Shown: positions 14,667-49,700 of the stretch, in pieces
How positions within the stretch are numbered: the first letter of the stretch is position 1
Layout: every line of letters begins with the position of its first letter
IMG/VR virus record: IMGVR_UViG_3300025687_000049
Span: 1 to 58,681 of that record
From: a virus
Lineage: Duplodnaviria > Caudoviricetes
Reading direction: 5' to 3' (one strand)
DNA: 58,681 bases
Notes under the pieces: generated by a model
What the model saw: only the letters and a program-made list of their open reading frames with translations
What the model was told of the DNA's origin: nothing
Databases searched by the model: none
Translations under genes and position numbers: made by a program

Positions 14667-16709
14667 TTAATTAGTGCCTTGTTTAGCTTTTTGGGCTACC
14701 TGCCTACGTTGTAGCTCAAGGCGCTCTCGGTTGATGTCATTTTGTTCTGCATTGTTCTGAACCTCAGCCTGAGCAACACCCAGCTTCCCGACTTCTACGT
14801 TGGTACGTATTTCCTCGGTCGTAGCTTTGCGTTCTTGGACCACTGCCCGGGCCAGTAACTCTCGAATCTCAGCCAGAATCTTCTGATTCTCGACCGTGAT
14901 ACTCTCAAGTTCCAGACCTTTGATCTTCTGTTCCATCTCAGCAAGTCGTTGCTGTGATTCTTGCTCTTGGGCTTGTTGCTGCTCGAGACGTTCTTTGTCG
15001 GACTCAAGTGCAGCCATGATAGCAGCTTTGTTAATCACAGAAGACATCTCAACGAATCCTTGTGCAGCGGTCAGTTTAGCACCGACTGCATGCTCAGGAA
15101 GCATCCCGATTAACTGTGTGATATTGAGCTGCTCGATCTCTCGTGCTATAATACCCAGCTGACCTTTTACGATAAACTTGGTATCTTCCCAAGGGTATCG
15201 GCTAGGGGTAAACTGCAGGTACCGTAGTGCCATGCATTTGATTAGGGGGAGAATGAGGTTGCGTTCGATGTTGTTGACACTGCGCTTACTTCGTTTAACG
15301 AAGGCACCTAGCATCATGCTACCACTGTTGGCTGCATTCCCACCGGACTGTGTGTTACCCCGTAAGGTGGTGGCTGTATCGAAGGCACCGGTACCCATCT
15401 GTACCATCTGAGTCAATTCCCCAGTATGGTTGAAGGTGTTCGGATCTACCTGACCGATACCCACCGGCTGGAGGATCTCTGACGGAGGACCATTGGTCAA
15501 CCATACTTTGCCGGGCTTGATCTCTGGTTTGAATCCACGTGGTATCCGACCTGAGTCCATCCCGAGCATGGGAGCGGATACGAAACCTAGCGCATCCATT
15601 CGAGCCCTCATCTCACCATCAAGAGCTTTCTGTGGGTTGTAGCCCTTCTCAGAAACACCACGTCCCCAGAAGTGGCCTGGAACCTTCTCCCAAGGGAATG
15701 CGATCACTGATCGATCAACCTTGACAAAAGGGTTAGCCATTGCCCGAAGCAGGATGCTCTCATTACCGATTGTGACGATAGCCTCTACTAGGGGTCCTTC
15801 ATCACCATCAGCCTCATAGTCCTCAGCGAGTAGCTGATCTACCAGGTTATCGGATCCACCATTCGCCTCCTCGAGGAGGAAGAGAGGTACCTTTCCGTGG
15901 TACTCTAGGATATGCATTGCATCTGTGTCGGAGTCATTGACGGTAACTGCTTCTGCGAAGTCAGCTTCGTCTCCTGTCCGCGGAGATGTGATTGCTAGGA
16001 TATAGCCCAATGCGTCCTGTCTGTAAGTTCCTTGACGGATCTTCTCCAACGTACCGACCACCGGTTTGTTCCGGTACTCAATACCACACCCCAACATTCC
16101 AGCTATTGAAGTAGCTGCAGGGTCTGGGATGAATTGGTCTGGACGTACTGACTCAGGGGTTACGATAACAGTCTCGTTATCCTCGCCGACCAATCGACCT
16201 TCGTCATTGCGCTTTATGACCTTCTCGTTGTATGTATCAACGTTGATCTTTACGATTCCGGTGCCGAAAAGGGCGGCATTGGTGATAGCTTCGCTTAGGA
16301 CGGACTTGGTGTCTACCAGCTCCATATCCTCACGCAGCTGATCACGCATCAGCAGTGCATCGACTTTCTCCTCATCCTGGATATCATCGACCACATCAAA
16401 CCAGACTTCTCGTGAAAGGAGTGTTTCTTCCACTTCCGCCACTGAAGTCTCTACTGCTTGAGCTAGAGCGGGGGCAATAAGCCGTGACCGCTCTGAGCTA
16501 CGATTCTTATCTTGTGCGGCCCAATAGCCGCGCCACATACGCCAATATTCAGCCCATCGAGCTGCTTCAGGAAGGCGGTTGCGGTAATCACGCCAAGGAC
16601 CTACCCTACCAATAACCCAGGAGGTCAGCCGGTTGCCAGGAACATTCTCTGCTCCCTTACCACCGGAATCAATCTCTCGCGGATTGTCTACGAGTATTTC
16701 AATGCCCAT
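14667..16709 (-). CDS. Portal protein
   Basis: 680 aa; A.FGTGI.K, F.PDP.A, FWGRGV.E motifs; C-terminal coiled-coil barrel; follows TerL. Confidence 0.88.
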   Translation of the reverse strand: MGIEILVDNPREIDSGGKGAENVPGNRLTSWVIGRVGPWRDYRNRLPEAARWAEYWRMWRGYWAAQDKNRSSERSRLIAPALAQAVETSVAEVEETLLSREVWFDVVDDIQDEEKVDALLMRDQLREDMELVDTKSVLSEAITNAALFGTGIVKINVDTYNEKVIKRNDEGRLVGEDNETVIVTPESVRPDQFIPDPAATSIAGMLGCGIEYRNKPVVGTLEKIRQGTYRQDALGYILAITSPRTGDEADFAEAVTVNDSDTDAMHILEYHGKVPLFLLEEANGGSDNLVDQLLAEDYEADGDEGPLVEAIVTIGNESILLRAMANPFVKVDRSVIAFPWEKVPGHFWGRGVSEKGYNPQKALDGEMRARMDALGFVSAPMLGMDSGRIPRGFKPEIKPGKVWLTNGPPSEILQPVGIGQVDPNTFNHTGELTQMVQMGTGAFDTATTLRGNTQSGGNAANSGSMMLGAFVKRSKRSVNNIERNLILPLIKCMALRYLQFTPSRYPWEDTKFIVKGQLGIIAREIEQLNITQLIGMLPEHAVGAKLTAAQGFVEMSSVINKAAIMAALESDKERLEQQQAQEQESQQRLAEMEQKIKGLELESITVENQKILAEIRELLARAVVQERKATTEEIRTNVEVGKLGVAQAEVQNNAEQNDINRERLELQRRQVAQKAKQGTN

Positions 16710-17108
16710 TTAATATCCTGCCTGCGGAGAGCAACCTTTCACGCGGTTGTCTTTTCGTGTTAGTATCTGAAGATTGCTGGTGCAGTGTAGTCCGCCTAAG
16801 GCAATCGGTGTCATGTGATCTACTTCAAACTCCTCCTCTCCGAGAGAAGCTAGTAGGTATATCAGGGAGAAGTCTTCTGCAGAGCAGCACCCGCATAATT
16901 GGTCTCGGACTCTCGCTCTACGTATTGCCGCGTTGCGGCGGGTAGTCAGGGGACTATTCTTATCTGTCCTTGGGTTTTTGGCTCTATAGGAGTTGAGGTA
17001 CTCCTTCTTACAGGCTTTGCAGCTGTTGATGTGTCCATCGGCCATTTTAGAGTGTTTTCTAAACTCTGTGTGAGGCTTCTCTACCCCACAATCTTTGCAT
17101 ACCTTCAT
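16710..17108 (-). CDS. HNH homing endonuclease
   Basis: CKDC...CKAC zinc finger plus EVDH.TP...GGLH...NLQ.L....N..K; ATG overlaps terL stop. Confidence 0.85.
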   Translation of the reverse strand: MKVCKDCGVEKPHTEFRKHSKMADGHINSCKACKKEYLNSYRAKNPRTDKNSPLTTRRNAAIRRARVRDQLCGCCSAEDFSLIYLLASLGEEEFEVDHMTPIALGGLHCTSNLQILTRKDNRVKGCSPQAGY

Positions 17109-18448
17109 CAGTACCCACTTACTAAGTCTTGAGGTTCCCATAGATCTTCGAAATCATCCATGTCAGCCCATACTGTTGATGCTAATTGGTCCACGTAAGC
17201 GACTGCATCAGGACCATCATCATGTGACAAAGGGTCACCGAGGTCTGAGCACTGGTCAAGGAACCACTGATTCCACGGTCCCTCTACAAGCTTGACCATC
17301 CCTCTCTGAGCCCTACCTTGTAGTGCCCAAACTATTCGATCTAACTTCTTCTGGTTACCGTGCTTTAAGTCATGTGGGGTAATGAACCGGTTAAGCCGGC
17401 GCATCTCATCTTCAAGATACGGGAGGACAGCGTTCTTAAGCGCCCCTTGTTCAATACCTAAGGTACATCCCGGGTGTTGTGAGCAGGTGCGAACGATACG
17501 TAGGGCTACTTCCCTTACGTCCCAATGACCGTGCTCTATGTTCAGCACGTACCATCCTTCTGGTCCTACCCATGTAACAGCAATAACGGTCTCATCAGAC
17601 CGCGGCTTGTGTTTACCATCCGACTTCGCATATCCAGCTAAGTCTACGGTGACTACAACATTACCTTGTGGGAGTTTCTTGTCTTTTACGATCTCAAACC
17701 ACTCGGGTTTAAGATGTTTTCCGGATCCTGATACGAAGCTGGCTTCCAGCTCCTGCCGGATGTGGTCTCTTGATCCACCTCGGCCGGCGAGTACCCTCTT
17801 GAGCTCGTTGCGAGCCAGGAGTGGGTTGTCTACGGACTTAAAGTGGAAAGCTTCCCACTCATCCCATGGACTATCCATCCCCATCTCAACTGGATCCCAG
17901 TTAGGAGGGGTAGGCTTGTCGATCGCACCCATAAAGAGTTTGTAAAAGTGGTTTTTCCCCTTCGGCGTACCGATGAAGAGTGCATCTCCTTCTACATCCA
18001 TCAAGGCAGGTTCTATGATCTCTTCCCAGACCATTTCCTTCATATCCGCGTACTCATCGAGTACAACGTATGAATAACCCTCACCACGTAGAGAATCTGG
18101 GTTATCCGCCCCTTTGATGAATATTTGTCTACCCGAGATTAGCTCGATCCACCCATCATTTACGTTTTCACGTTTGATGAACCCTCCCTGCTTCTGGTAC
18201 CCGAGTAGAGTACGCAATTTAGGCCACATCACACGACGGGCCTGGTCAGCAGTGGGGGCTACATAGTAGACCTTGTTTTCTGGGGTTAGTTTGTACCCTT
18301 TGTGGGTGTTTTGGAGGGCTGCAAGCCCGAGCATGGCAGCTGCGAAATGCGACTTTCCAAAACGTCTTCCCGCTGCAACCACCTTAAAGCGAGCCTTACT
18401 ATTGTAAATAGAGACTTGCCCGGGGTGCAGGGATACGTCAAGCTCCAT
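17108..18448 (-). CDS. terL: Terminase large subunit
   Basis: AGRRFGKS Walker A, LRG...VVLDEYA Walker B, IGTPKGKN, HDDGPDA nuclease motif. Confidence 0.95.
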   Translation of the reverse strand: MELDVSLHPGQVSIYNSKARFKVVAAGRRFGKSHFAAAMLGLAALQNTHKGYKLTPENKVYYVAPTADQARRVMWPKLRTLLGYQKQGGFIKRENVNDGWIELISGRQIFIKGADNPDSLRGEGYSYVVLDEYADMKEMVWEEIIEPALMDVEGDALFIGTPKGKNHFYKLFMGAIDKPTPPNWDPVEMGMDSPWDEWEAFHFKSVDNPLLARNELKRVLAGRGGSRDHIRQELEASFVSGSGKHLKPEWFEIVKDKKLPQGNVVVTVDLAGYAKSDGKHKPRSDETVIAVTWVGPEGWYVLNIEHGHWDVREVALRIVRTCSQHPGCTLGIEQGALKNAVLPYLEDEMRRLNRFITPHDLKHGNQKKLDRIVWALQGRAQRGMVKLVEGPWNQWFLDQCSDLGDPLSHDDGPDAVAYVDQLASTVWADMDDFEDLWEPQDLVSGY

Positions 18449-20833: not shown

Positions 20834-21258
20834 TAAAAGTGAAACTTTTTTGTAACAAAGTGTTACAGACTGAAACATATTGAAATAAATACCTACTTCT
20901 AACACCTAGAAGTTATCCAGTTTTTCTCCACTTTGGGTTACGAAAAACAGGATTCCATATATTTACTCTATTTTTTGTATACAAATCAACTACTTAACCC
21001 CCAACCTAAGAAAGTCTACTCCCCTGTAATTATCTTATTCTGCCTGACCAGAATTAGGTTCATATGTCGATCGAATTGTATAGCCTGACTTGACTTTTTC
21101 ATTTCTCGTTCCCTAGTGCTGCTACCGCAGAAAAAACCGCCTGGGTATAAGGGATGCCCCTCCTTAGAACAAAATGATCTAAGAAATTTCTTGACATGGG
21201 GAAGAGACTGTGGCTCAACTGTTCTGCAATAGCGCGGTTGCACATCAACTAGTATCTG

Positions 21259-21274
21259 TGTTTCACGTGGAACA
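21259..21274. promoter_or_regulatory. parS: parS-consensus palindrome
   Basis: TGTTTCACGTGGAACA (reverse complement TGTTCCACGTGAAACA) fits the chromosomal parS consensus TGTTNCACGTGAAACA. Confidence 0.65.
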
Positions 21275-21380
21275 TATCCGCAACTGTTGGGTTGCACATT
21301 GAATGTAAGTAGAATGTAGGGGGGAAGAGGGGGGTAGGGGGGATATACCTTTTAGTTATAAGCTTATAACAACACGGTAT

Positions 21381-21408
21381 TAGACATCCTCAACAAAAGG
21401 CGTATAAT
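21381..21408 (+). promoter_or_regulatory. Host sigma70-type early promoter
   Basis: TAGACA-N16-TATAAT; predicted start ~21415. Confidence 0.65.
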
Positions 21409-21414
21409 GATTAC

Positions 21415-21755
21415 ATCAGCTCGGGGATTACACCTCGACTCGGTAAGCACGGTAGGCCTCGCGGTCAGATCCACATAGCCAGAGTAGCAGTTGATCAGGG
21501 TCCCTCGAACGTAGCACAAATCGAGGTCTGGCGAGTAGGTCACCTTAGGATTACAGAGTTTATCCGAAGTGGCACATAGGATGAAAGCCGGGGGTTAAAA
21601 TAATAGCGTGTTGGTAGGTAGAACTACCAGTTGGATATAAGGATACATCCAATTCTGCCGGGCATCGCTGAGCATGTTGTCCCTAGTCTTCACTTAGGAG
21701 CGTAAGCTTCCAGTGTGTGAGGATCCTAGCGATTTAGTGATTCAACGGTGAAGAT
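21415..21755 (+). ncRNA. Structured 5' leader of early transcript
   Basis: No ORF >=60 aa; several hairpins (TCGGGG/CCTCGA, CCTCGA/TCGAGG, TGGTAG/CTACCA, TTGGAT/ATCCAA, GTCTTCAC/GTGAAGAT). Confidence 0.45.
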
Positions 21756-21925
21756 TCATATCATATCTCTCCAAAAACCTACTGATGACTCGAGAGAGAA
21801 CGGCTAGCAATAGCTGTTGATGCCGTGGTTGGCATCGAAACAAACGCAGCAATGCGGGGATGGAGTGGTTGGGATGCTTTCTAAGTATGCCGATCAGACC
21901 ATCCCAAAATTGTATAGGTAACCAT
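21756..21925 (+). ncRNA. Type I hammerhead ribozyme with inserted helices; predicted cleavage after 21914
   Basis: Stem I ACCTA(21777-81)/TAGGT(21915-19); CTGATGA 21782-88; stem II GATGCC/GGCATC then GAAA 21837-40; stem III ACAA/TTGT; GTA triplet 21912-14; loop II GTGGTT pairs with AACCAT 21920-25. Confidence 0.85.
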
Positions 21926-21938
21926 TGAGAATGATATT

Positions 21939-22127
21939 ATGACTACACAATTACACACCAAAGTGGATCTATTTGCCGGCACTCAGTACGAGGGCTTGAC
22001 ATACAACCAGATCCGTAGGATGCTTACACCTGCTCAGGTTCGAGTGCTACAGCAATTGAATAAGCGAGGAAAAAAGATCGCATCTCACCAGAATGCAATG
22101 CAACGTGTAATCCAGTCCTATCGGTAG
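21939..22127 (+). CDS. Early hypothetical protein
   Basis: First ORF after ribozyme cleavage site. Confidence 0.6.
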   Translation: MTTQLHTKVDLFAGTQYEGLTYNQIRRMLTPAQVRVLQQLNKRGKKIASHQNAMQRVIQSYR

Positions 22128-22160
22128 ATAGGTCTGTTTAGGTAAACCAGGAGACTAAAT

Positions 22161-22412
22161 ATGACTATTAAGACTACTAAAATCGAAGTGAAAAGGTTTG
22201 AAGCCCAGCAAATTTGCAGCGCACTATTTGACCGTGCTCGCCAATCAATTGAGGAAGAAAACTTCCATAATTGCGCTGAAGAGCTCGAGATCGCAGCAAA
22301 ATTTGTCCGGGCAATCAATCCTTCCTATCGCAAGACATACCGAGATGCGATAGATATCATATACTTCCAGAGAGCTTGCAGAATGGAGGATATAGACTAC
22401 GTAGAGCCTTAG
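22161..22412 (+). CDS. Early hypothetical protein
   Basis: Preceded by repeat element/RBS. Confidence 0.7.
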   Translation: MTIKTTKIEVKRFEAQQICSALFDRARQSIEEENFHNCAEELEIAAKFVRAINPSYRKTYRDAIDIIYFQRACRMEDIDYVEP

Positions 22413-22444
22413 GGCTCTCGTTTAGGATAACCAAGGAGATATAT

Positions 22445-22618
22445 ATGAATATTGTACGAGAAACAGAAGCGGATTTTTCACTTGACAGCTTCGAGATTGA
22501 GCATTTACGGGAAAATCTGCCGGTGATCGGCGTATGTGAGCTGACAGACTTCGAAGCCTTTCACTTAGGCTTGATCGATGAAGATCTACTGTTCAGGCTA
22601 CGTACTGAACTCCTCTAG
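22445..22618 (+). CDS. Early hypothetical protein (start reassigned)
   Basis: AAGGAG RBS then ATG 22445. Confidence 0.7.
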   Translation: MNIVRETEADFSLDSFEIEHLRENLPVIGVCELTDFEAFHLGLIDEDLLFRLRTELL

Positions 22619-22652
22619 GGAGTTCGGTTTAGGAATAACCACGGAGATTGAT

Positions 22653-23153
22653 ATGAAAGAGACACAACAATGGGAACAGCTTCAAGATACCCTTAATGGG
22701 GAGCAGAATTTCTGTATAATCGAGGAGCGAAAAGCGCCGATATTGTATGCGGTACTGCTACAGATCAAAAAGATCGATGGCATACCTGTTACACATCGGA
22801 ATGGGAAGGAAGGTCCCGAGGTTATTGTTGGTAATGGGTACTATGTCCAGAAATACCTGGAACTGCTATCCGATAGACCAAAATATACCAGAGCTGACTT
22901 CCAAGTCCAGATGGGACTTTTACTAGGCTACTCGTTTGAAGATTGTGTGGAGTTTGCAAAGAATCCACCCGATTGTGATTGCGAGAAATGCGGAGGTCCT
23001 AACGATCGCATTGAGCTTGGTCCAGTAGAGTATGAAGGTACAAGACCATACCAAAAGGCCACCTACCAAGGTGCCGCATATGGGACCTTATATCACCCGG
23101 ATCCTGAGCTGATAAAGCACAGTCCAGGGATACAAAATTGGTCAAAACCCTAG
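22653..23153 (+). CDS. Early hypothetical protein with CxCxxC motif (start reassigned)
   Basis: GGAG RBS then ATG 22653; MGLLLGY and CDCEKC. Confidence 0.7.
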   Translation: MKETQQWEQLQDTLNGEQNFCIIEERKAPILYAVLLQIKKIDGIPVTHRNGKEGPEVIVGNGYYVQKYLELLSDRPKYTRADFQVQMGLLLGYSFEDCVEFAKNPPDCDCEKCGGPNDRIELGPVEYEGTRPYQKATYQGAAYGTLYHPDPELIKHSPGIQNWSKP

Positions 23154-23200
23154 TGTTTTAGCCCTCTAACGGGGGCGTTTAGGTAACCAAGGAGATAGAT

Positions 23201-23809
23201 ATGTACCAGAAAGAAATGCGGAAAATCCAAGCCGGGTTTGCTGCTCAACCAGGTGAGACACTAGAACAAACAGTTAGGTTTGTACTCGCCACCATCCAAC
23301 AACAATTTTCTACTGTGGAGGACATTCTCCATACATGGGCGTTGCAGGGTGAAATGGCTCCCACTATGTGGGGCGCTAAGAGAAAGGGTGTTCGCTATAT
23401 TGAGAAGCATTCCCAGGAATTGGCCGCTAAATTGAAGGGGTGCGACACTGTGGAAGCAGTGGATACACTCTTGACAGTCCCCGGGCTGAACACGGTAAAG
23501 GCAAGCTTTGTTGCCCAGTGTCTCGGCTTTGGTGTTGGGTGTATAGATACCCACAATGCGAGGATCCATGGCGTAAACGTCAAATCCTACGCGGTTACTA
23601 AGAACTTGACAGCGAAGACTAGACTTGCTAAAATCAAGTCTTACATTGCATTATGTCAAGGACTAGGAGGATCCGCGGTGTTGTGGGACTCATGGTGCGA
23701 GCTTATCGCCGATAAGCAGAGCGCACACTTCGATGACGCGGAGGCTGTGAGTGCATACCATTCACACTGCATACTAAAGCATGTAAAACATGATCCTGCC
23801 AGATGGTAG
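23201..23809 (+). CDS. HhH-GPD DNA glycosylase-like protein
   Basis: LLTVPGLNTVKASFV...CIDTH helix-hairpin-helix plus conserved Asp. Confidence 0.55.
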   Translation: MYQKEMRKIQAGFAAQPGETLEQTVRFVLATIQQQFSTVEDILHTWALQGEMAPTMWGAKRKGVRYIEKHSQELAAKLKGCDTVEAVDTLLTVPGLNTVKASFVAQCLGFGVGCIDTHNARIHGVNVKSYAVTKNLTAKTRLAKIKSYIALCQGLGGSAVLWDSWCELIADKQSAHFDDAEAVSAYHSHCILKHVKHDPARW

Positions 23810-23838
23810 GATCGTCTAGGATAACCAAGGAGAATGAT

Positions 23839-24072
23839 ATGAAACTGACCGCAGAAAACCTTCGCAATATGCAAAGCAACCTGTTTACCATCGATGACGA
23901 TCTAGGGGAGACTATCAAACGTATCCCTAATGAATACGCCTATGTGGTGTTCATTGCTGCAAATACTGTCCTCGAGTCCTTAGCCGTGATGGTTGAGGAG
24001 GCAGAAGAGGAAGAGCTGACAGCTTTCGAGCTTCGAGAGCTGGAAGCCCAAGAGAAGGGAGGTGGAGAATGA
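23839..24072 (+). CDS. Early acidic hypothetical protein (start reassigned)
   Basis: AAGGAG RBS then ATG 23839. Confidence 0.7.
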   Translation: MKLTAENLRNMQSNLFTIDDDLGETIKRIPNEYAYVVFIAANTVLESLAVMVEEAEEEELTAFELRELEAQEKGGGE

Positions 24073-24185
24073 GCCACGATGACGACAATGTCCCTTTCTG
24101 GGACGCGGTGTTGATGGTCACTAGTAGTTATGTTAGTGTGATCATTGTTGTGCTGTTTACAGCATGGTTACTAGGGCAGCTTTAA
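24069..24185 (+). CDS. Small single-pass membrane peptide (38 aa)
   Basis: ATGA overlap, GGAG RBS, hydrophobic core; stop lies in the next element's hairpin. Confidence 0.5.
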   Translation: MSHDDDNVPFWDAVLMVTSSYVSVIIVVLFTAWLLGQL

Positions 24186-24218
24186 GCTGTCCGTCTAGGA
24201 ATAAACCAGGAGATTGAT

Positions 24219-24503
24219 ATGACCGAAAATGACCAAAGACTGTATGGAACCATAATCGACACCCTCGACGATAACCAGATCCTTGATCTAGTGCTTGTCA
24301 TGGGAGTTATGCCGTGGTATAGTGGTATCCCTCACAGTGTATATGTGAGTCTAAAAGAGTTCCTTGCCGACCAGGGACTAGATACCACCAAGTACGTGGT
24401 GAAAGCCTCTGTAGATTGGGAGGAAGTTGAAGCCGCTCGACCCGAAGATGGTAGTCCATGGGTAACCGTGGAAGCAGCTGATATTAGCGTAGAAGTCGAA
24501 TAG
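24219..24503 (+). CDS. Early hypothetical protein
   Basis: Preceded by repeat element/RBS. Confidence 0.7.
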   Translation: MTENDQRLYGTIIDTLDDNQILDLVLVMGVMPWYSGIPHSVYVSLKEFLADQGLDTTKYVVKASVDWEEVEAARPEDGSPWVTVEAADISVEVE

Positions 24504-24590
24504 ACTACACCGCGGAGAATTCCACTCCGTGGGCTACCTACATCCTAAGCATGATGTAAAACTGCTGTATAGATAACCAGGAGAAATGAT

Positions 24591-25007
24591 ATGACTAAGT
24601 TAACACGCGAATTGATCGAAAAAGAATACGCTAGAATTGAGGAAAAGAAGCGTAATCTCGAGGTCTTCGAGCCTCGTCCGATCCAAGCACAGTACGATGC
24701 TTTGTTCCAAGCCTTATATGACGTGGATCCGAACATCAACATTAAGGCCAATAGTAACGACGGTGAGTTCGATATCCGCTTCGCTGGAGACAGTGGGGTG
24801 TACCGGTGGGTATACTCAACTTTACGTGAGCATGGCTGGGAGCCAGAAGATCGTATCTCCGATGATACGCGGAACTACTTCACTACGTGGTACAGAAAAG
24901 AGGGCCTTCCATCTTTGTATGTAACCTTCTCGAGCACCGTATGCCAGCGTGTCCAGGTAGGAACCCGGACGGTAGAAGAGCCAATCTATGAGCTTGTGTG
25001 TGAGTAG
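24591..25007 (+). CDS. Early hypothetical protein
   Basis: Preceded by repeat element; C.RVQVG......P.YE..C C-terminus. Confidence 0.7.
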   Translation: MTKLTRELIEKEYARIEEKKRNLEVFEPRPIQAQYDALFQALYDVDPNINIKANSNDGEFDIRFAGDSGVYRWVYSTLREHGWEPEDRISDDTRNYFTTWYRKEGLPSLYVTFSSTVCQRVQVGTRTVEEPIYELVCE

Positions 25008-25053
25008 TTAACCTGGGCTCCGGCCCAGTTTAGGAATAACCAAGGAGAATGAT

Positions 25054-25206
25054 ATGGAAAGTAACCAAAACGAAAACCTTTTGTATGCAATTAAGCAGAT
25101 TGCGGCCCAGTTCTCTGGTGAGCGTAGGTTCACTGGGAGCGTAGAGTTCACTGTAGATCTGCGTCTCATAATCAACGCCCAGGACATCGAGGAGGAAAGC
25201 AATTGA
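25054..25206 (+). CDS. Early hypothetical protein (50 aa, not in ORF track)
   Basis: Repeat element/RBS then MESNQNENLL...ESN*. Confidence 0.65.
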   Translation: MESNQNENLLYAIKQIAAQFSGERRFTGSVEFTVDLRLIINAQDIEEESN

Positions 25207-25352
25207 GCGATTTTGTAGCAGCCTTTTTTATGATGATCTTTCTGTGTGCAGGCTTGCTAGTCTTATGGCTAGCGAGTATACTGAACTCAGTGACCCTCGT
25301 ATTTATAGGCCTAGCCATCATAGCAATCAGCACAAAAGGAGCTAAGGGATAG
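25203..25352 (+). CDS. Small membrane protein (49 aa)
   Basis: TTG start overlapping upstream TGA, GAGGAGG RBS, two hydrophobic stretches. Confidence 0.45.
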   Translation: MSDFVAAFFMMIFLCAGLLVLWLASILNSVTLVFIGLAIIAISTKGAKG

Positions 25353-25391
25353 GGGCGAAAGCCCCCGTCTAGGAATAACCAGGAGATAGAT

Positions 25392-25571
25392 ATGAAAGAG
25401 CAGTTAACAAATAAAGAGATCGTTAATTGGCTGGTATCAAATGATATTGGCCTGAGCGATGTGATCGACGCAGTGATTGACGTAAATGGGATCATTGGTG
25501 TAGGATTGATAACCCTCGCAGAGGGATTGTCGCAGTATGTCCAGGACCAGATAACACCACAAGGAGATTAA
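25392..25571 (+). CDS. Early hypothetical protein (59 aa, not in ORF track)
   Basis: Repeat element/RBS then MKEQLTNKEI...QGD*. Confidence 0.65.
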   Translation: MKEQLTNKEIVNWLVSNDIGLSDVIDAVIDVNGIIGVGLITLAEGLSQYVQDQITPQGD

Positions 25572-25572
25572 G

Positions 25573-25692
25573 ATGGGTGGTCACTTGTATTGGAGCTGTG
25601 CCGTATGGGTTGTACAGTACGGTGGGTTCACACAATATCAGTTGGATGTTGCCACTACGTGGGCACTCCAGATCCTTTCTGAGGAGGCGTAG
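25573..25692 (+). CDS. Small hypothetical protein (39 aa)
   Basis: AAGGAG RBS, fills the gap exactly. Confidence 0.45.
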   Translation: MGGHLYWSCAVWVVQYGGFTQYQLDVATTWALQILSEEA

Positions 25693-25881
25693 ATGAAGAC
25701 GCTACTGGTAGTGCTGTGTGCGTTTAATACGCACTGTGAGCACGAGTGGGAAGCGGTGTATGCCGCGGATAACTTAAGGGAGTGCAGAGCACAAGGGAAG
25801 GCTCAATTCCCTGAATACGAGCGCCTATGGCTCTGCGTGAAAGATATTCAAGTTAAAGATGAATGGAGCGAGTTCGAATGA
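25693..25881 (+). CDS. Small Cys-containing hypothetical protein
   Basis: GAGGAGG RBS. Confidence 0.55.
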   Translation: MKTLLVVLCAFNTHCEHEWEAVYAADNLRECRAQGKAQFPEYERLWLCVKDIQVKDEWSEFE

Positions 25882-26072
25882 ATGATATAGTACACATCAC
25901 ACAGATGATATCCCTATGTGGGCAACGATTGGACCGTATCCAATCAGACGAGCAGCGGGTACGGATCCTACAGGAGCTGGATGACCTTCTCTTCGAAGCA
26001 GAAGGGTATCTCAAGGATGAACTTTACCACTACGAGGAGACCATCGACGGTCAGCACGGCTCACCTTTCTAG
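25878..26072 (+). CDS. Hypothetical protein
   Basis: ATGA overlap, GGAG RBS. Confidence 0.55.
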   Translation: MNDIVHITQMISLCGQRLDRIQSDEQRVRILQELDDLLFEAEGYLKDELYHYEETIDGQHGSPF

Positions 26073-26134
26073 GTACCCATATAGGGAACCTTCGTACCCG
26101 AAAAGGGTACGTCTAGATAACCTTGGAGAATGAT

Positions 26135-26824
26135 ATGACAGAACTGAGTAGTTTTCAGCTCTACAGCATTGACCTAGATGCCGCGGAGATTGAACACAAG
26201 ACCAAACACCAGCTCGCCGGCTTACATGCTGAAGCCTTGAAGGGAAACCAGAAGGCGTGGCATGATCTTTGGTTGTACGGGACCAAACTGGTCCTGAAGA
26301 TATGCAACAAGCTCTCGTCTATGGACTTACTCCGTTGTGAGTACGAAGAGGCTGTAGCTGAGGGGAATGCTGCGATCGGAGAGGCACTGACCCGGTGGAA
26401 CCCTAAGAAGTCCAGCTTCGGTACCTGGGTATGGATCCGGGTTCGAGGTGCAATCCTCGATGAGTCGAAGAAGTGGTCTCCTGAACCAGGTGTAGTCCCT
26501 GCCGAGGTGACTCTATCAGATGACCAGGAGCATGGTGATGACGAGTACAACAATTCTCTCTATGATCTGGCTGACGAGGAATATCTGGGTGAAGATCCTG
26601 CTCTGGATCTCGATAAAGCCCGGTTGAGAAGAGTCCTTCCAGCACTACCTGAGAGGGAGTTGAAGTACGTAACCCTGTACTACTTTGAGGACCAGACTCT
26701 CAATGAGATAGCCGATCTGGAGGGTATTAGCCGGAATATGGTACACAAGATTCTTAAGCGAGCTGAGGCTCGTTTAGGTGAATTGTTATTGGGGGGGTTA
26801 ACAATCTCCGCGTTCGAGCGATAA
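26135..26824 (+). CDS. Sigma-70 family RNA polymerase sigma factor
   Basis: Region 2 (EG...I.EA..RWNP....FGTW..IRVRGAILD) and region 4 (LPERE...V.LYY....TL.EIA...GIS...V....RA..RL). Confidence 0.88.
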   Translation: MTELSSFQLYSIDLDAAEIEHKTKHQLAGLHAEALKGNQKAWHDLWLYGTKLVLKICNKLSSMDLLRCEYEEAVAEGNAAIGEALTRWNPKKSSFGTWVWIRVRGAILDESKKWSPEPGVVPAEVTLSDDQEHGDDEYNNSLYDLADEEYLGEDPALDLDKARLRRVLPALPERELKYVTLYYFEDQTLNEIADLEGISRNMVHKILKRAEARLGELLLGGLTISAFER

Positions 26825-26834
26825 TAGTAATATT
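26794..26834 (+). promoter_or_regulatory. Phage-specific promoter copy A (primase/helicase block)
   Basis: GGGGTTAACA-N15-CGATAATAGTAATATT. Confidence 0.75.
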
Positions 26835-26924
26835 AGTATTAGTATAAGTGTAATTAGTAGTTTAGGGATGCCCCAAAGCATCCCATAATTATAAGTAATT
26901 ACATAAAGTTTAGGAGATATAGAT

Positions 26925-27224
26925 ATGTCTGATAGACATGAATTGTTTGAAGAACTGGAAGCCTTTCACCCTTTGTGGTTCAAGGTATACCATAATCTAG
27001 AAGAGGCTGTTGAAGCAGCCTCAATAGAGACTCCATACATCATCGACTTATGGGAAGACTACCTACTGACAACGGAACGTATCGTAGATGGAGTCCCAGA
27101 CATCAAGAAGTACATCGAGGAGTGTCAAGAAGCGGAGCAGAATGCTCCTGAGTTTCAGAGAGCTGTATCGACTATCCGGTATGTTAACCGGATCGATGAT
27201 AACAAGTTCTACTTCTCGGAGTAG
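26925..27224 (+). CDS. Hypothetical acidic protein
   Basis: AGGAG RBS. Confidence 0.65.
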   Translation: MSDRHELFEELEAFHPLWFKVYHNLEEAVEAASIETPYIIDLWEDYLLTTERIVDGVPDIKKYIEECQEAEQNAPEFQRAVSTIRYVNRIDDNKFYFSE

Positions 27225-41716: not shown

Positions 41717-43062
41717 TATCTAGCGTCCACGTAGGCTTGCGCTTGTACTAACGTAATGTTTTCCATAACAACTACATGCCTATTCCACATTGATGTTGCT
41801 GGTCCTACCCTAGATTGCGAGCTGTTGTGCCTGAACAAAAACCCGTCTATCTGTAGGTCGTTTTCGTAGATAACCGGGCACTCGTCATACACCTTTATTG
41901 CCGCCCCCGCTTGTGAGTCCTGTATCCAAAGGCTTAGAGTGTCGTTGTCAAAATCAAGAAACGCCCAATAGTAAATCCAACGATCAGGCAAAATATCCAG
42001 ACTTCCAACCTTCGGCTCCAGCGTATCACCAGAACCCACCGTGCCAGCCGTGACGCCTTCCGCAGAACCGTACAACCGGACATTTGGCGTTCCAACAACT
42101 CCCTCAACGTTGTTGTAAGACGTTCTAATTTCAACCGCTCGTCCAGGTCCGGCATCACCGTAAAGGATGAACTCTTTGTGCGTATTCATACCGCCAACGC
42201 TACCATCAGGGTCTTTCTGCGCCCAAACGTCTCCCCACTTGTTTTCCCAATAAAAGAATGCTGTTCCTGAATTTGCGGCTATATTCAAATCTGGATTTTG
42301 CCCATTACCCAAACCCATGTTTACACCGTTCCCGTCATTGACGCCGAACTTCTGAATAGCGGCTTCCTCAACCGGGTCATAATCAATAGAGTTGGTGTTG
42401 TAGTTGGCAACTTGCGTCCAAACTGCTGGCGCTATTTGATCTGTAAAAACATCGCCATCACCATAAAGAGGAAAGCCCCGAGTAGTCGCAGGCTCCGCTG
42501 CTAACATTTCATAATAGGAGTGCTGTCCGCCAACCACAAAACCACTGAATGTACTAGCCTTCACGCTACTAAAATCGGATTCATTACCAGCAAGGTCACG
42601 TGCGGTTATTTTATACCAAGTCTGTATAGACGTATCGAACGCTGAGTCTGTATAAGAATTACCCGGAGCACCAACTGTTGCTATAGGAACCCCAAAACCA
42701 GAGTCAGCAGATGTGGTCGATTTATATATTCGATAGTCCTGAATATCCGGCTCAGTATTACTTGTCCAAATTAACTGTATAGAGTTAGTCTGCTGGTTCG
42801 TTAAAAGAAATCCGGCAGGGGCTAAGGGAGGGTCTACATCTACACCAGGATGTTTTGCGCCTATACCCTGTAAAATACTTACTGACACTTTCGGCTGCCT
42901 AATCTCATACTCGCCCAATTCAGCGTTAAGAAAAAACTCATTTGTTTCAAAAACGTCCTGAAATCTGTCTTGGAATACCCATTCATCACCTACTAATTTA
43001 TAGACTTCAAGGTATCTTGAATCTGAACCATTGCCGCCGCGCTTTGTTACGCTATTTGGCAT
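41716..43062 (-). CDS. FN3 + lectin-like (LamG/polysaccharide-lyase-like) virion protein
   Basis: PP.AP...W..N.E.D...Y.IY...Y.D...Y.ITA.D..GNES FN3 motif followed by an aromatic beta domain. Confidence 0.7.
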   Translation of the reverse strand: MPNSVTKRGGNGSDSRYLEVYKLVGDEWVFQDRFQDVFETNEFFLNAELGEYEIRQPKVSVSILQGIGAKHPGVDVDPPLAPAGFLLTNQQTNSIQLIWTSNTEPDIQDYRIYKSTTSADSGFGVPIATVGAPGNSYTDSAFDTSIQTWYKITARDLAGNESDFSSVKASTFSGFVVGGQHSYYEMLAAEPATTRGFPLYGDGDVFTDQIAPAVWTQVANYNTNSIDYDPVEEAAIQKFGVNDGNGVNMGLGNGQNPDLNIAANSGTAFFYWENKWGDVWAQKDPDGSVGGMNTHKEFILYGDAGPGRAVEIRTSYNNVEGVVGTPNVRLYGSAEGVTAGTVGSGDTLEPKVGSLDILPDRWIYYWAFLDFDNDTLSLWIQDSQAGAAIKVYDECPVIYENDLQIDGFLFRHNSSQSRVGPATSMWNRHVVVMENITLVQAQAYVDAR

Positions 43063-43153
43063 TATTTTCTCCTTTCATTGTATTTAGTCACCACTTGGGA
43101 CAGGAAGTAGAACCCGACATAGTGTGGCGCGTTCGCTTCCTCGTCAACGATGC
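42380..43153. repeat. Diverged direct repeat, copy 2
   Basis: Matches 1-775. Confidence 0.95.
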
Positions 43154-46211: not shown

Positions 46212-46776
46212 ATGTGTACTCCACGTTTTTATATATTGGGTGCTCAGAGCGTCGTTGCTCTAAGTGTTCTGGTGTTATAGTTATTTTACTTAATACTATT
46301 TTTTCATCTAGTCTGGATTTTCTTTTGGGCTCCTTAGCTTTAGTTATACTTCTCCACTTAGTAGCAGCATTATTAACATTATCAGTATTTACTACTTCAA
46401 GAAAACAACTATCTAACTTTAAAACATCAAAATACCAATATCCATGTAAAAAAGAAGTAGCAGTTTGGCACCCTTGACCTCTGTATTTTGGATGAATTCC
46501 TCCAAGAACTGCCTCTGCTACATTTCTCTCAAATTTATTCCATCTAAACCCTACTGGAGTGCCCTCCCTTTCTAGTATAGTACATAAATGAGTTTCGGAA
46601 GTTACCTTATCTGGATTAAAGGCTTTTCCTAAATGCAACATATTAGACATAGAGTTTCTAACTTGCATTAAAGTCATATCTCCTACTGGGAAGTCAGACA
46701 TAGACTCATAAAGAAACTCTTCATCAGAGTATTTCAGCCTTCTCAGTGCAAACCCGTTACTAGATTTTATCATCAT
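46198..46776 (-). CDS. GNAT-like acetyltransferase
   Basis: LRRL...D, IHPKYRGQG motif A. Confidence 0.6.
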   Translation of the reverse strand: MMIKSSNGFALRRLKYSDEEFLYESMSDFPVGDMTLMQVRNSMSNMLHLGKAFNPDKVTSETHLCTILEREGTPVGFRWNKFERNVAEAVLGGIHPKYRGQGCQTATSFLHGYWYFDVLKLDSCFLEVVNTDNVNNAATKWRSITKAKEPKRKSRLDEKIVLSKITITPEHLEQRRSEHPIYKNVEYTYDLL

Positions 46777-49700
46777 GCTTTTCCTGCTGCTACGTGTAAT
46801 TGTAAAATTTGTGCTGCTATAGTGACTGTCTCTCCAGAGGCGGTATGAGTAATAGTAACAGATGGATATTTAGTATTATTACCACTTATTGCACCCGCAG
46901 ACCATCCGGTAGACACTCCTGTAAAAGCTCCAGTTATAGTATCAGAGTTACTTGAGGTGACATTTGTCATAGTCCATCTCCAGGTAACGCTTGCTATAAC
47001 TCCATTAGCAATAGCAGATATTACTACATCTTGAGTGTCTGTTCCCCCTTCTGAACATTGGGGCTCATATATAACTCCATCGTTAGTTATCCAAGTAGTT
47101 TCATAATTTGACGCTTGAAGATGAGTTACTATATCATCGTTTAAAACGTCAACGTCATCTATAAGGGTACCCCCAGAATCGAATAAGTTAGTGCCGGCAG
47201 TAGCGCCTACAGTAGCTGCCAAATCTCCGGCGTAAAGCCCCCCGCCCGTAAACCGAAGCGCATTTGGAACGCCGGTAAGATCGATTTCATCGTCGTTCAT
47301 CAACGCCATGACGGTGACGTTATCGACATACAGAACACCGCTAGAGCCATCGCCCTGAATGCCAATATAGTCTGTGCCTCCGCTGATGGGTGTGGGCACT
47401 GAGTAGGTGAATAAGTAGGGAACCCACGATGTCGTCGGCGTAAAAGCTTGCCAGCCGCTGTTCCCGTTATCGTTCGTCGAATAGGCCACTTCAAAGGAAG
47501 TTGCGCCGCCGCTTGACGCGGCTTTGGCGTAACAAGTTACGAGAATTCGCCTGCCCCCAAATGCGAGCGCGATTTCCGTCGGGATCACGAAATAAACGCC
47601 GCCTGTAGTGCCAGCCGCATTCGTTGATTTTGTTGCCGTGACAATCCTTGCCGCTGAACTCCCTGAAAATTTTTCTGTTGTTTCTCTAGTCAGCGTGTGA
47701 CCAGCGGGCGCTGTCCACCCGGTAAACTCTGCACCATCCTCAAAACCGTTACGCCACAAACCACCCGTTGATTGACCCACCACTGAGGCGGGAGTGCCAT
47801 TGACGCTGGAAATGAGATTGCCGCCAGAATCGAGGCCAGTGCTGATTCGCCCATCGGTCAACTCAGTCGGGCGGTTCGTAACATCTGATGTCCAGCTAAC
47901 ATCATCCTGATCGGCAAGCGCTCCGGTATTTCGGGTGGCTCTGGATCGTTTTATGCACCATTCAATTTCTAAATTGCCAGTTGCTCCGACATTGTTGGCA
48001 GCATCCAGCACAATAGATGCGTACCTGCACGTCGACGTAGGTACGTATGTGCCCGAGAAAACTGCATAGGTTGTACTTAAATCCCACTCATTGCTTGTTG
48101 CATATGCAGTATTTGGAGAAGTGAGTGCAACTGCACGCGTCTGCACTTGCAGCAAATCTGCTGAATCGGCACCAGCCTGGCCAGTTGTAGATACAATTGC
48201 ACGCTTACCGCTGGCTAGATCTGAGTCATACTCCCGCACAGCCATGACGAACCTAGTGCCATCACCTGAAACGGTTTTGCGTACTAGCGCGGAAATTTCA
48301 TATTCCGTATTGGGTTCTGGAATGAAAAAAGCCCCCGCATACTGTAGGCCAGCATCGGCAGGTATGATGATCACATCTCTTGAGGCGTCTTTGTATTGTG
48401 CAGGCGCGGCTGATCCGTATCCGTACCAACTCGCCGGTGCAGGGTTTCCAGTTGGCCCAACTCGCGGAATCTCGAATGTCGGGTTTTGGTTTTCTGCCGA
48501 TAGCGCGTTAACAACAAGCTGGTCGTTTCGCACGTCAATATCTGAAAGTATATCGCCTGCTTCATTTTTTAAATCAGTGCCCGCAGTAGCGCCTTCTAAT
48601 CCTGGTGATACAATCGTGAAACGTAAATTGTCCATGTAAAAAGATGCGGTATTTGTACCGATTGCCCCAATCACAACGCGAATACGATCCCACGGGGTTG
48701 ATCCAATACTTCCACCGCTGTAGGTCTTATCATTTAATGATAATTTGAAATAAACTCGCTGCCAGGCACCTATTACAGTGGTGTCGATTGATTCTTGTTT
48801 ATATATGAAATTAACAGAAGTACCACCATGACTTAATCTCACTTGTATGCCTACACCACTGCCAGAGGTATAAGAGGCAAGGTATATGTCAAAAGAACCA
48901 ATAACAATTGAATCAGCAGGTAATGAAATTGCGGAATCCCTATATAAATAGGATGACCCCGACCCCGTGGTACTTATATATACAGAATGAGGTCCCGTAA
49001 GGATATATGTAGAATTAGTGTTCTTGCTTATTGAGCCCCCACCAACTGGTAAATAACCGTCAGGATAGGTGCCAGTCCAATCAGCAAATGCAGGGTTAAA
49101 CCCTAAAGCGCTTGCATCATCGAAATTCGTTATAGTCCCGTCCGATATAACATTACCGTTAGCGTTTACCAGGTCAGTGCCTGCGGTAGCACCAACTGTA
49201 GCGTTGTCGTCTGGGGCGTTTGTTGTGCCAGATATATTCGCCCATACCTGCGCCTCATTTTCTATGTTTGGCGAAAGTATCGCAAAGCGCAAATTGTCAA
49301 AAATGACGGTACCTGTAAACGCTGAAAGACCAGCACCGGTATAGGACGCCATAAAAAAAATGCGTACAGCGTCGTATAAAGTAGGGGTACCACCAGTAGG
49401 TCCCTGAGTTTTGTCATTTTTTGAAATTTTAAAATAAACTCTCTGCCAAACTCCTGTGTTAGACGGATTAGGAACAGGTGCTCCTAGTCGATAGAAAGCG
49501 CTACCATCCACTAAATCTATCAATAACCCAGGAGTGCCGCTCGTGTATGATTCAATATAGACATCATAGGACCCAATAAGAATAGAATTTACATCAAATT
49601 CCATAAGTATTGCTGGACTCATTACATTACTCGTCCTGTACATACCTGCGTCTGTACCATCACAGGTGAATTTAACAGCGTTAGAGCCGGTTAAAACCGT

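Follow-up and report, generated by a model that had tools for sequence, protein, structure and literature searches.

Why would one short stretch in the leader of a phage early transcript be complementary to the translation starts of ten genes downstream of it? The question is raised by the 17-mer TCATATCATATCTCTCC at positions 21756-21772 of IMG/VR record IMGVR_UViG_3300025687_000049, a complete virus record whose full 58,681 nucleotides (nt) were analysed and are called the window here. A sequence-only reading had proposed that the 17-mer is a guide in the 5' arm of a ribozyme, aimed at the Shine-Dalgarno (SD) sequence and start codon of early genes. Our comparative analysis suggests that it is probably the substrate-binding guide arm of an elaborated hammerhead-type RNA, which would cleave in trans or at long range within its own transcript and also cover SD and AUG. 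The RNA has a conserved fold, its arm is complementary to the gene starts, and arm and starts co-vary across phages.

The 17-mer has a single mismatch-free copy in the window, on the plus strand and exactly as reported; a look-alike with three mismatches lies at 54517 (chance expectation 0.12 matches). Its reverse complement is GGAGAGATATGATATGA. The strings of ribosome-binding site (RBS), spacer and start that it had been said to fit are likewise present, GGAGAATGATATG at 23814, 25028 and 26111, GGAGATTGATATG at 22627 and 24193, and GGAGATAGATATG at 23177 and 25367. They belong to elements in front of ten downstream genes, which share the layout hairpin-GT-H-TAG(G)-(A)ATAACCA-GGAGA-WW-GATATG in ambiguity code, H being any base but G. 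The ten remote elements are listed below, with the energy of the duplex formed with the arm in kcal/mol.

22136-22163, plus strand: remote element 1, with hairpin, GUU, UAGG, AACC, GGAGA and AUG at 22161; arm duplex -10.7, the weakest of the ten
22420-22447, plus strand: remote element 2, with GUU and AUG at 22445; arm duplex -16.7
22627-22655, plus strand: remote element 3, with GUU and AUG at 22653; arm duplex -16.9
23177-23203, plus strand: remote element 4, with GUU and AUG at 23201; arm duplex -15.4
23814-23841, plus strand: remote element 5, with GUC and AUG at 23839; arm duplex -18.2; the cofold retains ribozyme and substrate hairpins
24193-24221, plus strand: remote element 6, with GUC and AUG at 24219; arm duplex -16.0
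24567-24593, plus strand: remote element 7, with GUA, UAGAU and AUG at 24591; arm duplex -17.7; its weak hairpin does not abut the triplet in the minimum free energy (MFE) fold
25028-25056, plus strand: remote element 8, with GUU and AUG at 25054; arm duplex -17.7
25367-25394, plus strand: remote element 9, with GUC and AUG at 25392; arm duplex -17.4
26111-26137, plus strand: remote element 10, with GUC, UAGAU and AUG at 26135, before the sigma factor gene; arm duplex -17.5

Spacers between RBS and AUG normally vary freely. At the element-bearing genes, as had been pointed out, GAT stands immediately 5' of ATG in eight of ten cases; GATATG occurs in 2 of the 108 other ATG-started open reading frames (ORFs) of at least 60 codons. 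In these genes SD, spacer and start are all complementary to the arm, provided that a 2-nt bulge or small internal loop is allowed. When a 27-nt arm was paired with positions -18 to +7 of each start by RNAduplex, the ten element genes gave -10.7 to -18.2 kcal/mol (mean -16.4), against a mean of -8.1 kcal/mol (standard deviation 3.2, best -16.1) for 59 other genes (Mann-Whitney p = 9e-7); none of the 59 attains the element median. The 31 other genes with an SD core average -9.7 kcal/mol (p = 1e-5 versus the element genes). With intramolecular structure allowed to compete, cofolding of arm and ribozyme with positions -60 to +10 gave a free-energy difference (ddG) of -13.2 for element genes versus -5.4 for the others (p = 1.7e-6). 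By both measures pairing is clearly better at the element genes than at other RBSs, where equal energies had been named as the outcome that would count against a guide.

In the RNA, the arm forms the distal 5' strand of helix I, and the remaining parts extend over 21777-21919, just ahead of the first rightward gene.

21756-21772, plus strand: guide arm, distal 5' strand of helix I, the 17-mer TCATATCATATCTCTCC; its block AUAUCUCUC is invariant in five of five phages
21773-21776 and 21777-21781, plus strand: A-rich linker and proximal helix I strand ACCUA, the latter pairing with UAGGU at 21915-21919
21782-21788, plus strand: CUGAUGA, read as core positions C3 to A9; identical in the relative L031, which was found without this motif
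21789-21798 and 21799-21818, plus strand: two GNRA-capped hairpins between A9 and G10.1; 2 of 3 and 6 of 8 pairs changed on both sides
21819-21836, plus strand: helix II, G-C closed, 4 of 7 pairs changed on both sides; its loop GUGGUU at 21825-21830 complements AACCA(C) of the elements
21837-21841, plus strand: GAAAC, read as G12, A13, A14, A15.1 and C15.2, directly 3' of helix II
21845-21905, plus strand: distal branch of helix III, with a GNRA hairpin at 21845-21856 and a long hairpin at 21857-21905; 2 of 4 and 18 of 20 pairs changed on both sides
21911-21941, plus strand: cis site, UGU-A and then UAGGUAACCAUUGAGAAUGAUAUUAUG to the start codon at 21939; predicted cut at 21914/21915

In the cis site GUA (21912-21914) lies immediately 5' of UAGG. 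In every fold tried the arm also pairs in cis, 21758-21764 with 21931-21937 and UCUC at 21766-21769 with GAGA at 21927-21930; the helix closed in this way takes in the spacer and the SD-like GAGA ahead of the first gene start at 21939. The whole helix I side gives -14 to -20 kcal/mol with each element and -15.0 kcal/mol with the cis site; in these models the arm supplies most of the energy with which the RNA binds the elements.

Relatives of the RNA were found in metagenomic phages. A terminase alignment led to 63 IMG/VR loci (labelled L), and blastn among them to one RNA homologue, L031 (62% identity in the domain), a route independent of the core motifs. A pattern made from the blocks shared by the window and L031 and scanned through contig collections gave four more loci that were accepted by covariance model R1 with scores of 113-173 bits, namely L096 (near-identical to L031), L092, L104 and L095. 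The distinct sequences are thus five: the window, L031, L092, L095 and L104. The arm and the elements were absent from every search pattern.

Across these five, in an alignment fitted to the structural model, 98% of the cells of the whole fold are paired and 34 of 50 pairs are changed on both sides; none of 500 shuffles equalled the observed value, and slid controls were 30-37% paired. In the comparison of the window with L031 alone, 24 of 47 predicted pairs are compensated. Pairing is 100% in proximal helix I (five pairs, one compensated), helix II (seven pairs, four compensated) and helix III (three pairs, one compensated). In helix III, columns 68-141 and 69-140 hold A-U and C-G in all five sequences, the former being the A15.1-U16.1 pair of a hammerhead, and the third pair is A-U in three and G-C in two. 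The RNA has the C3-A9 core, G12 A13 A14 after helix II, three covarying helices and, at position 17, a base other than G. A parse of CUGAUGA...GAAAC without helix II was dropped, as the relatives support helix II with an insertion between A9 and G10.1. A K-turn or C/D-box reading of UGAUGA with CUGA was set aside because it leaves the conservation of GU-H-UAGG unexplained.

The elements are as regular as the RNA is. A regular expression gave 35 hits in the five phages, of which 32 (27 remote) were kept as their ATG opens at least 40 codons; the three left out open 2, 5 or 35 codons, and two of these carry G at H. In the sequence examined, remote elements number seven in L031 and five each in L104 and L095, and L092 has none on its contig. 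All 32 elements read GU-H-U(A/G)G, with H being U in 17, C in 13, A in two and G in none. Element position 1.2 varies from A to G only, and G still pairs with U. AACC is found in 31 of the 32, the exception being CCACC, and both complement loop II with its closing bases. Of the 27 remote elements, 23 have a stable hairpin that runs directly into GUH (0 nt between), three leave 1 nt between the two, and in one the hairpin is non-abutting. In the window the elements are confined to the strand of the RNA and lie downstream of it; on the whole minus strand the same expression gives one unrelated match, with G. R1 recognizes one ribozyme in the window, and the ten remote elements carry substrate-side blocks only, a layout of one enzyme and many substrates that recurs in L031, L104 and L095. 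Given the complementarities of loop II, CCUA, UCUCC, A15.1/C15.2 and the arm, each conserved element block has a partner on one RNA.

The element hairpins were also considered as terminators, a reading that was rejected with one of ten flagged as terminator-like. A minus-strand gene with RBS and ATG, read from the reverse complement of the arm, was rejected too, as its frames stop after 2 and 5 codons. Positions 26908-26927, immediately beyond the sigma factor gene, hold a shortened element-like site, with GTTTAGG fused to the SD and without the AACC block or an abutting hairpin, ahead of a 99-amino-acid (aa) gene at 26925. The duplex between the start region of this gene and the arm scores -16.7 kcal/mol, so that the site may be a further remote target, the eleventh, or a decayed one.

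How arm and elements differ between phages bears most directly on the guide proposal. AUAUCUCUC is common to all five arms and is the sole invariant block upstream of the core, and its 5' and 3' flanks vary by phage. In L031 the remote spacer reads ACUUAUG in four of seven elements and ACCUAUG in one, instead of GAUAUG, and only the L031 arm has AUAAGU. In L095 the SD block is AUAGAGA for GGAGA in four of five remote elements and in the cis site, and only the L095 arm ends in UCUCUAU. Shuffling the variable distal arm reproduced the observed mean energy in 0 of 500 trials for the window, 4 of 500 for L031 and 14 of 500 for L095. When all arms were crossed with all elements, each arm bound the elements of its own phage best. 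In all four phages with remote elements the arm fits these better than the cis site, with means of -15.8, -14.5, -10.9 and -12.5 versus -10.3, -8.6, -8.4 and -7.3. In all ten remote genes of the window the best duplex pairs the GGAGA of the SD and the complete AUG; AUG is also fully paired in 6 of 7 in L031 and 4 of 5 in L095, and two of its three bases are paired in 5 of 5 in L104.

Co-variation of arm and target across phages is therefore supported by these sequences, holding for L031 and L095 and being undetectable in L104. The suggestion that the arm would explain the conserved spacer fares well, as complementarity kept through compensating changes in L031 and L095 accounts for it. In L095 (RNA strand 1220-2733), AUAGAGA is a poor SD yet matches its own arm, which hints that arm pairing and not SD strength is conserved there, or that the host initiates translation differently.

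On these features a mechanism may be proposed in which catalysis, action at the remote sites (in trans or within one transcript) and effects on translation or its timing all stay conditional. The hammerhead-like RNA would be transcribed first, from an early promoter of host type. In cis, the arm and ACCUA would pair with UAGGU, GAGA and the spacer of the first gene, and the core would cut after GUA at 21914. At a remote element, A15.1 and C15.2 would pair with GU, CCUA with UAGG, UGGUU of loop II with AACCA, UCUCC with GGAGA, and the distal arm with spacer, AUG and the +4 base. The element's own hairpin, which abuts GUH, could stack on the two intermolecular pairs (A15.1-U and C15.2-G) as a stand-in for helix III, and cleavage at GUH would fall some 20-25 nt ahead of each SD. 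Since the same RNA surfaces fit all ten elements, the targets of the RNA would comprise all cistron junctions in the early operon, up to and including that of the sigma factor gene.

Because the arm pairs with SD, spacer and AUG, the bound RNA would have to exclude the 30S subunit. A cut junction would yield a hairpin-capped 3' end and a message with a 5'-OH, its RBS being held until release. Masking of this kind, which the sequence-only reading had put forward as antisense repression or timing of early genes, may be a selected function or may follow incidentally from the use of the one sequence near the cut that can be conserved. In its most far-reaching form the proposal is of a natural, protein-free, guide-directed RNA endonuclease, one ornate hammerhead that would cut every junction and gate the whole early operon including the sigma factor gene; we advance this tentatively, as possible though somewhat less likely than not.

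Other explanations were weighed against the same data. The MFE folds of every construct pair 21758-21769 with 21927-21937, and the phage-specific part of the L092 arm matches its own cis spacer GAUUA, as might be expected if the arm served solely to close a cis helix at the first gene start, either helix I of a self-cleaving leader or a plain anti-SD, and matched remote genes as a by-product of alike early starts. Such a cis-only helix fails to explain the co-variation and the better remote fit seen in four of four phages, which pairing of the RNA with remote starts does explain. The L031-specific AUAAGU matches remote spacers and not the cis spacer AUGCA, L096 shares the L031 arm although an indel has altered its cis spacer, and GU-H-U(A/G)G, AACC and the abutting hairpin at 27 remote sites would be left unexplained, so that we regard a cis-only role as quite unlikely. 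A related possibility is that the RNA pairs with remote starts but does not cut them: once self-freed, it might bind early starts one for one, block the 30S subunit and shut off early genes as it accumulates. Pairing of the SD and the whole AUG in the remote duplexes (10 of 10 in the window, 6 of 7 in L031 and 4 of 5 in L095), the stability of the complexes and a trans helix III of only 2 base pairs would all suit an antisense regulator, and engineered long-armed hammerheads in E. coli inhibit partly via a translation block (PMC12531169). This alternative too is unlikely, as binding alone requires no GU, non-G17, UAGG or abutting hairpin, all of which are retained at remote sites, and as there is 1 RNA to 11 sites per transcript.

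Early phage mRNAs can also be processed by proteins, RNase III in T7 and RegB, which cuts GGAG, in T4. By analogy with these cases, the elements could be sites for proteins or ribosomes, whether for processing by a host or phage RNase or as translation enhancers, the arm being a decoy or a stretch that folds the leader. GGAGA with an A/U-rich spacer is indeed a good start region by itself. We nonetheless find this very improbable, since every conserved element block has a partner in one RNA and two of the partners change along with the elements across phages, and since L095 keeps its arm complementarity while its SD weakens to AUAGAGA.

The reading that we prefer, a hammerhead-type RNA guided to remote sites, has its own difficulties. 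In the core of a hammerhead A9 is followed without interruption by the 10.1-11.1 pair, and in all five sequences a 30-nt insertion of two hairpins stands there instead; the only natural precedent found for an insertion at A9/G10.1 is of one extra base (PMC3705267). Rfam models, those of hammerheads included, gave no match at the gathering score in the whole window or, in 21200-22000, at E values up to 10, and thus assign the RNA to no known family; the A9/G10.1 insertion may be the cause. Since its core is interrupted and no curated model matches it, the RNA is classed as a hammerhead-like variant, not a proven member. The five distinct sequences, four of them with remote elements, are a small sample. 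Moreover, L092, L095 and L104 were found by a pattern fixing CUGAUGA, GAGA, GUGGUU and GAAAC, so that the invariance of these blocks in three of the five is no independent evidence.

Further points concern the fit of the arm and the chemistry. In L104, 125 of 500 shuffles were as good as the observed arm, and the arm 5' of AUCUCUCC adds nothing measurable. Read by elements rather than by arms, the crossing of arms with elements has the own arm best for the window and L031 only, and the elements of L104 and L095 pair better with the window arm, which has a tandem UCAUA repeat, than with their own. The base preceding GU is not conserved at remote sites. Remote helix III has 2 intermolecular pairs only, for which the 3' tail of the ribozyme must be displaced, and each transcript carries one ribozyme per 11 sites. 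With complexes of -14 to -20 kcal/mol, slow product release and turnover are to be expected, and stoichiometric masking is favoured over fast turnover. In the predicted free 5' product, UCUCUC of the arm (21766-21771) pairs with GAGAGA of the first inserted hairpin (21792-21797), with an unpaired probability of 0.01-0.02; a self-masked, self-inhibited state of the guide is possible on this model and would add to the difficulties.

How does this RNA compare with known systems? It resembles a type I hammerhead with extended helix I in having all core bases in order (CUGAUGA, G10.1-C11.1, GAA, A15.1-U16.1 and non-G17), three helices with compensating changes and the open end in helix I. Its predicted contact between loop II and the substrate strand of helix I resembles that of natural pseudoknotted hammerheads (PMC3088659). 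It differs from a hammerhead in the 30-nt two-hairpin insert at A9/G10.1, the branched helix III and the predicted position of helix I over SD and start codon. The same paper (Perreault et al. 2011) describes several complete hammerheads that flank genes in prophage transcripts, as well as one in haloviruses HF1/HF2 that is placed 13 nt upstream of the first early gene. These cases share with ours a polycistronic phage transcript with hammerhead sites at gene junctions, one of them just before the first early start codon; unlike them, which have a complete ribozyme at each site, the phage described here has one enzyme strand and at least ten substrate-only sites.

Trans-cleaving hammerheads engineered to have a long or extended arm in helix I have been described (PMC12531169, PMC3064770), and in E. 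coli long-armed ones show tight binding, slow product release and inhibition by cleavage together with a translation block (PMC12531169). There, too, guide arms choose an mRNA, with the difference that those RNAs are man-made whereas the targets here lie inside the phage's own genes. In full-text literature, without subscription journals and supplements, we found no paper on a lone enzyme strand that serves numerous substrate-only sites and has a guide covering start sites. The discontinuous, or split, hammerhead of mammalian Clec2 3' untranslated regions (UTRs) reportedly has enzyme and substrate strands that lie far apart and join by base pairing; it differs in having one substrate per enzyme, in its eukaryotic 3' UTR setting and in having no link to translation starts. 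Occlusion by antisense or small RNAs is a likeness in that base pairing covers SD and AUG. Cutting by T7 RNase III or T4 RegB is one in that early transcripts are cut at cistron junctions or the SD, with the difference that one cis-encoded RNA is involved here and no protein is implied.

To our knowledge, the natural small ribozymes, RNase P apart, are known as self-cutters, and hammerheads that find mRNAs by means of guide arms have until now come from laboratory design. The comparisons between phages suggest that this one itself aims a hammerhead at mRNAs, with a guide that covers about ten gene starts and evolves with them. If cleavage is true, it would give viruses a new route to the processing and control of early transcripts without host RNases. 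The conserved RBS-to-AUG spacers would be explained, and RNA-guided cutting of RNA in bacteria would gain a compact scaffold of natural origin that includes tertiary contacts.

The genome setting is that of an early leader. The virion and packaging arm runs leftward, with the terminase at 17108-18448 and the portal at 14667-16709, and the early and replication arm rightward, with a sigma factor at 26123-26824 (phrog_351, E = 2.7e-16), primase, helicase and DNA polymerase. Between them lies an ORF-free region, which contains the promoter and a leader of about 520 nt before the first rightward gene (ATG 21939, 62 aa; 2 ENA protein homologues at 76-77% identity).

21381-21408, plus strand: sigma70-like early promoter, TAGACA, 16 nt, TATAAT, with 11 of 12 hexamer matches; the best site within 21200-26900
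21417-21755, plus strand: upstream part of the leader, structured; it has no plus-strand ORF, and its only ORF is one of 59 aa on the minus strand (21364-21543)

From this promoter the transcript start is predicted near 21417, and L031 and L092 have similar promoters 390-460 nt upstream of the ribozyme. The leader fold over 21410-21940 is more stable than its shuffles (z = -5.1). A MAFFT alignment of the five phages has almost no invariant columns before the arm over the roughly 340 nt of 21417-21755; the length of the leader is similar in all five although this part is nearly unalignable. Just upstream of the -35 hexamer of the promoter lie a G-rich tract, with runs of 6-7 G (21320-21350), and the palindrome TTATAAGCTTATAA (21355-21368), which together look operator-like. 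Upstream of the corresponding promoters, L031 has the palindrome again and L095 a near copy of it, and G-rich tracts are also present in L104 and L095.

Wider searches added no member to the five sequences. Neither blastn of 21300-21940 against GenBank phages, nor the sigma factor protein against viral contigs, nor alignment A1 against metagenome contigs gave a match. A search by terminase only gave three loci, of which only L002 extends into the leader, over its first ~80 nt only. The element pattern TAACCAAGGAGANNGATATG occurred at 24 loci in viral contigs, none of them related, and with a looser pattern in viral contigs and a core pattern in genome contigs no further locus passed R1. When terminase relatives and pattern hits (49 and 60 loci) were scanned with covariance models R1 and R2, no additional member came up. 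In seven distant terminase relatives Rfam reported tRNAs only and no hammerheads. Neither a hammerhead nor this RNA was found in the sequence examined of L043, L046, L050, L053, L071 and L074 (terminase 57-61% identity); these six carry 4-11 tRNA genes in arrays upstream of the terminase.

Elsewhere in the window, a duplicate of about 775 nt (1-775 and 42380-43153, 95-97% identity) spans the 5' ends of two leftward genes, and the AT-richer right-hand part of the record holds a single ORF of 2,915 aa at 46773-55520 on the minus strand.

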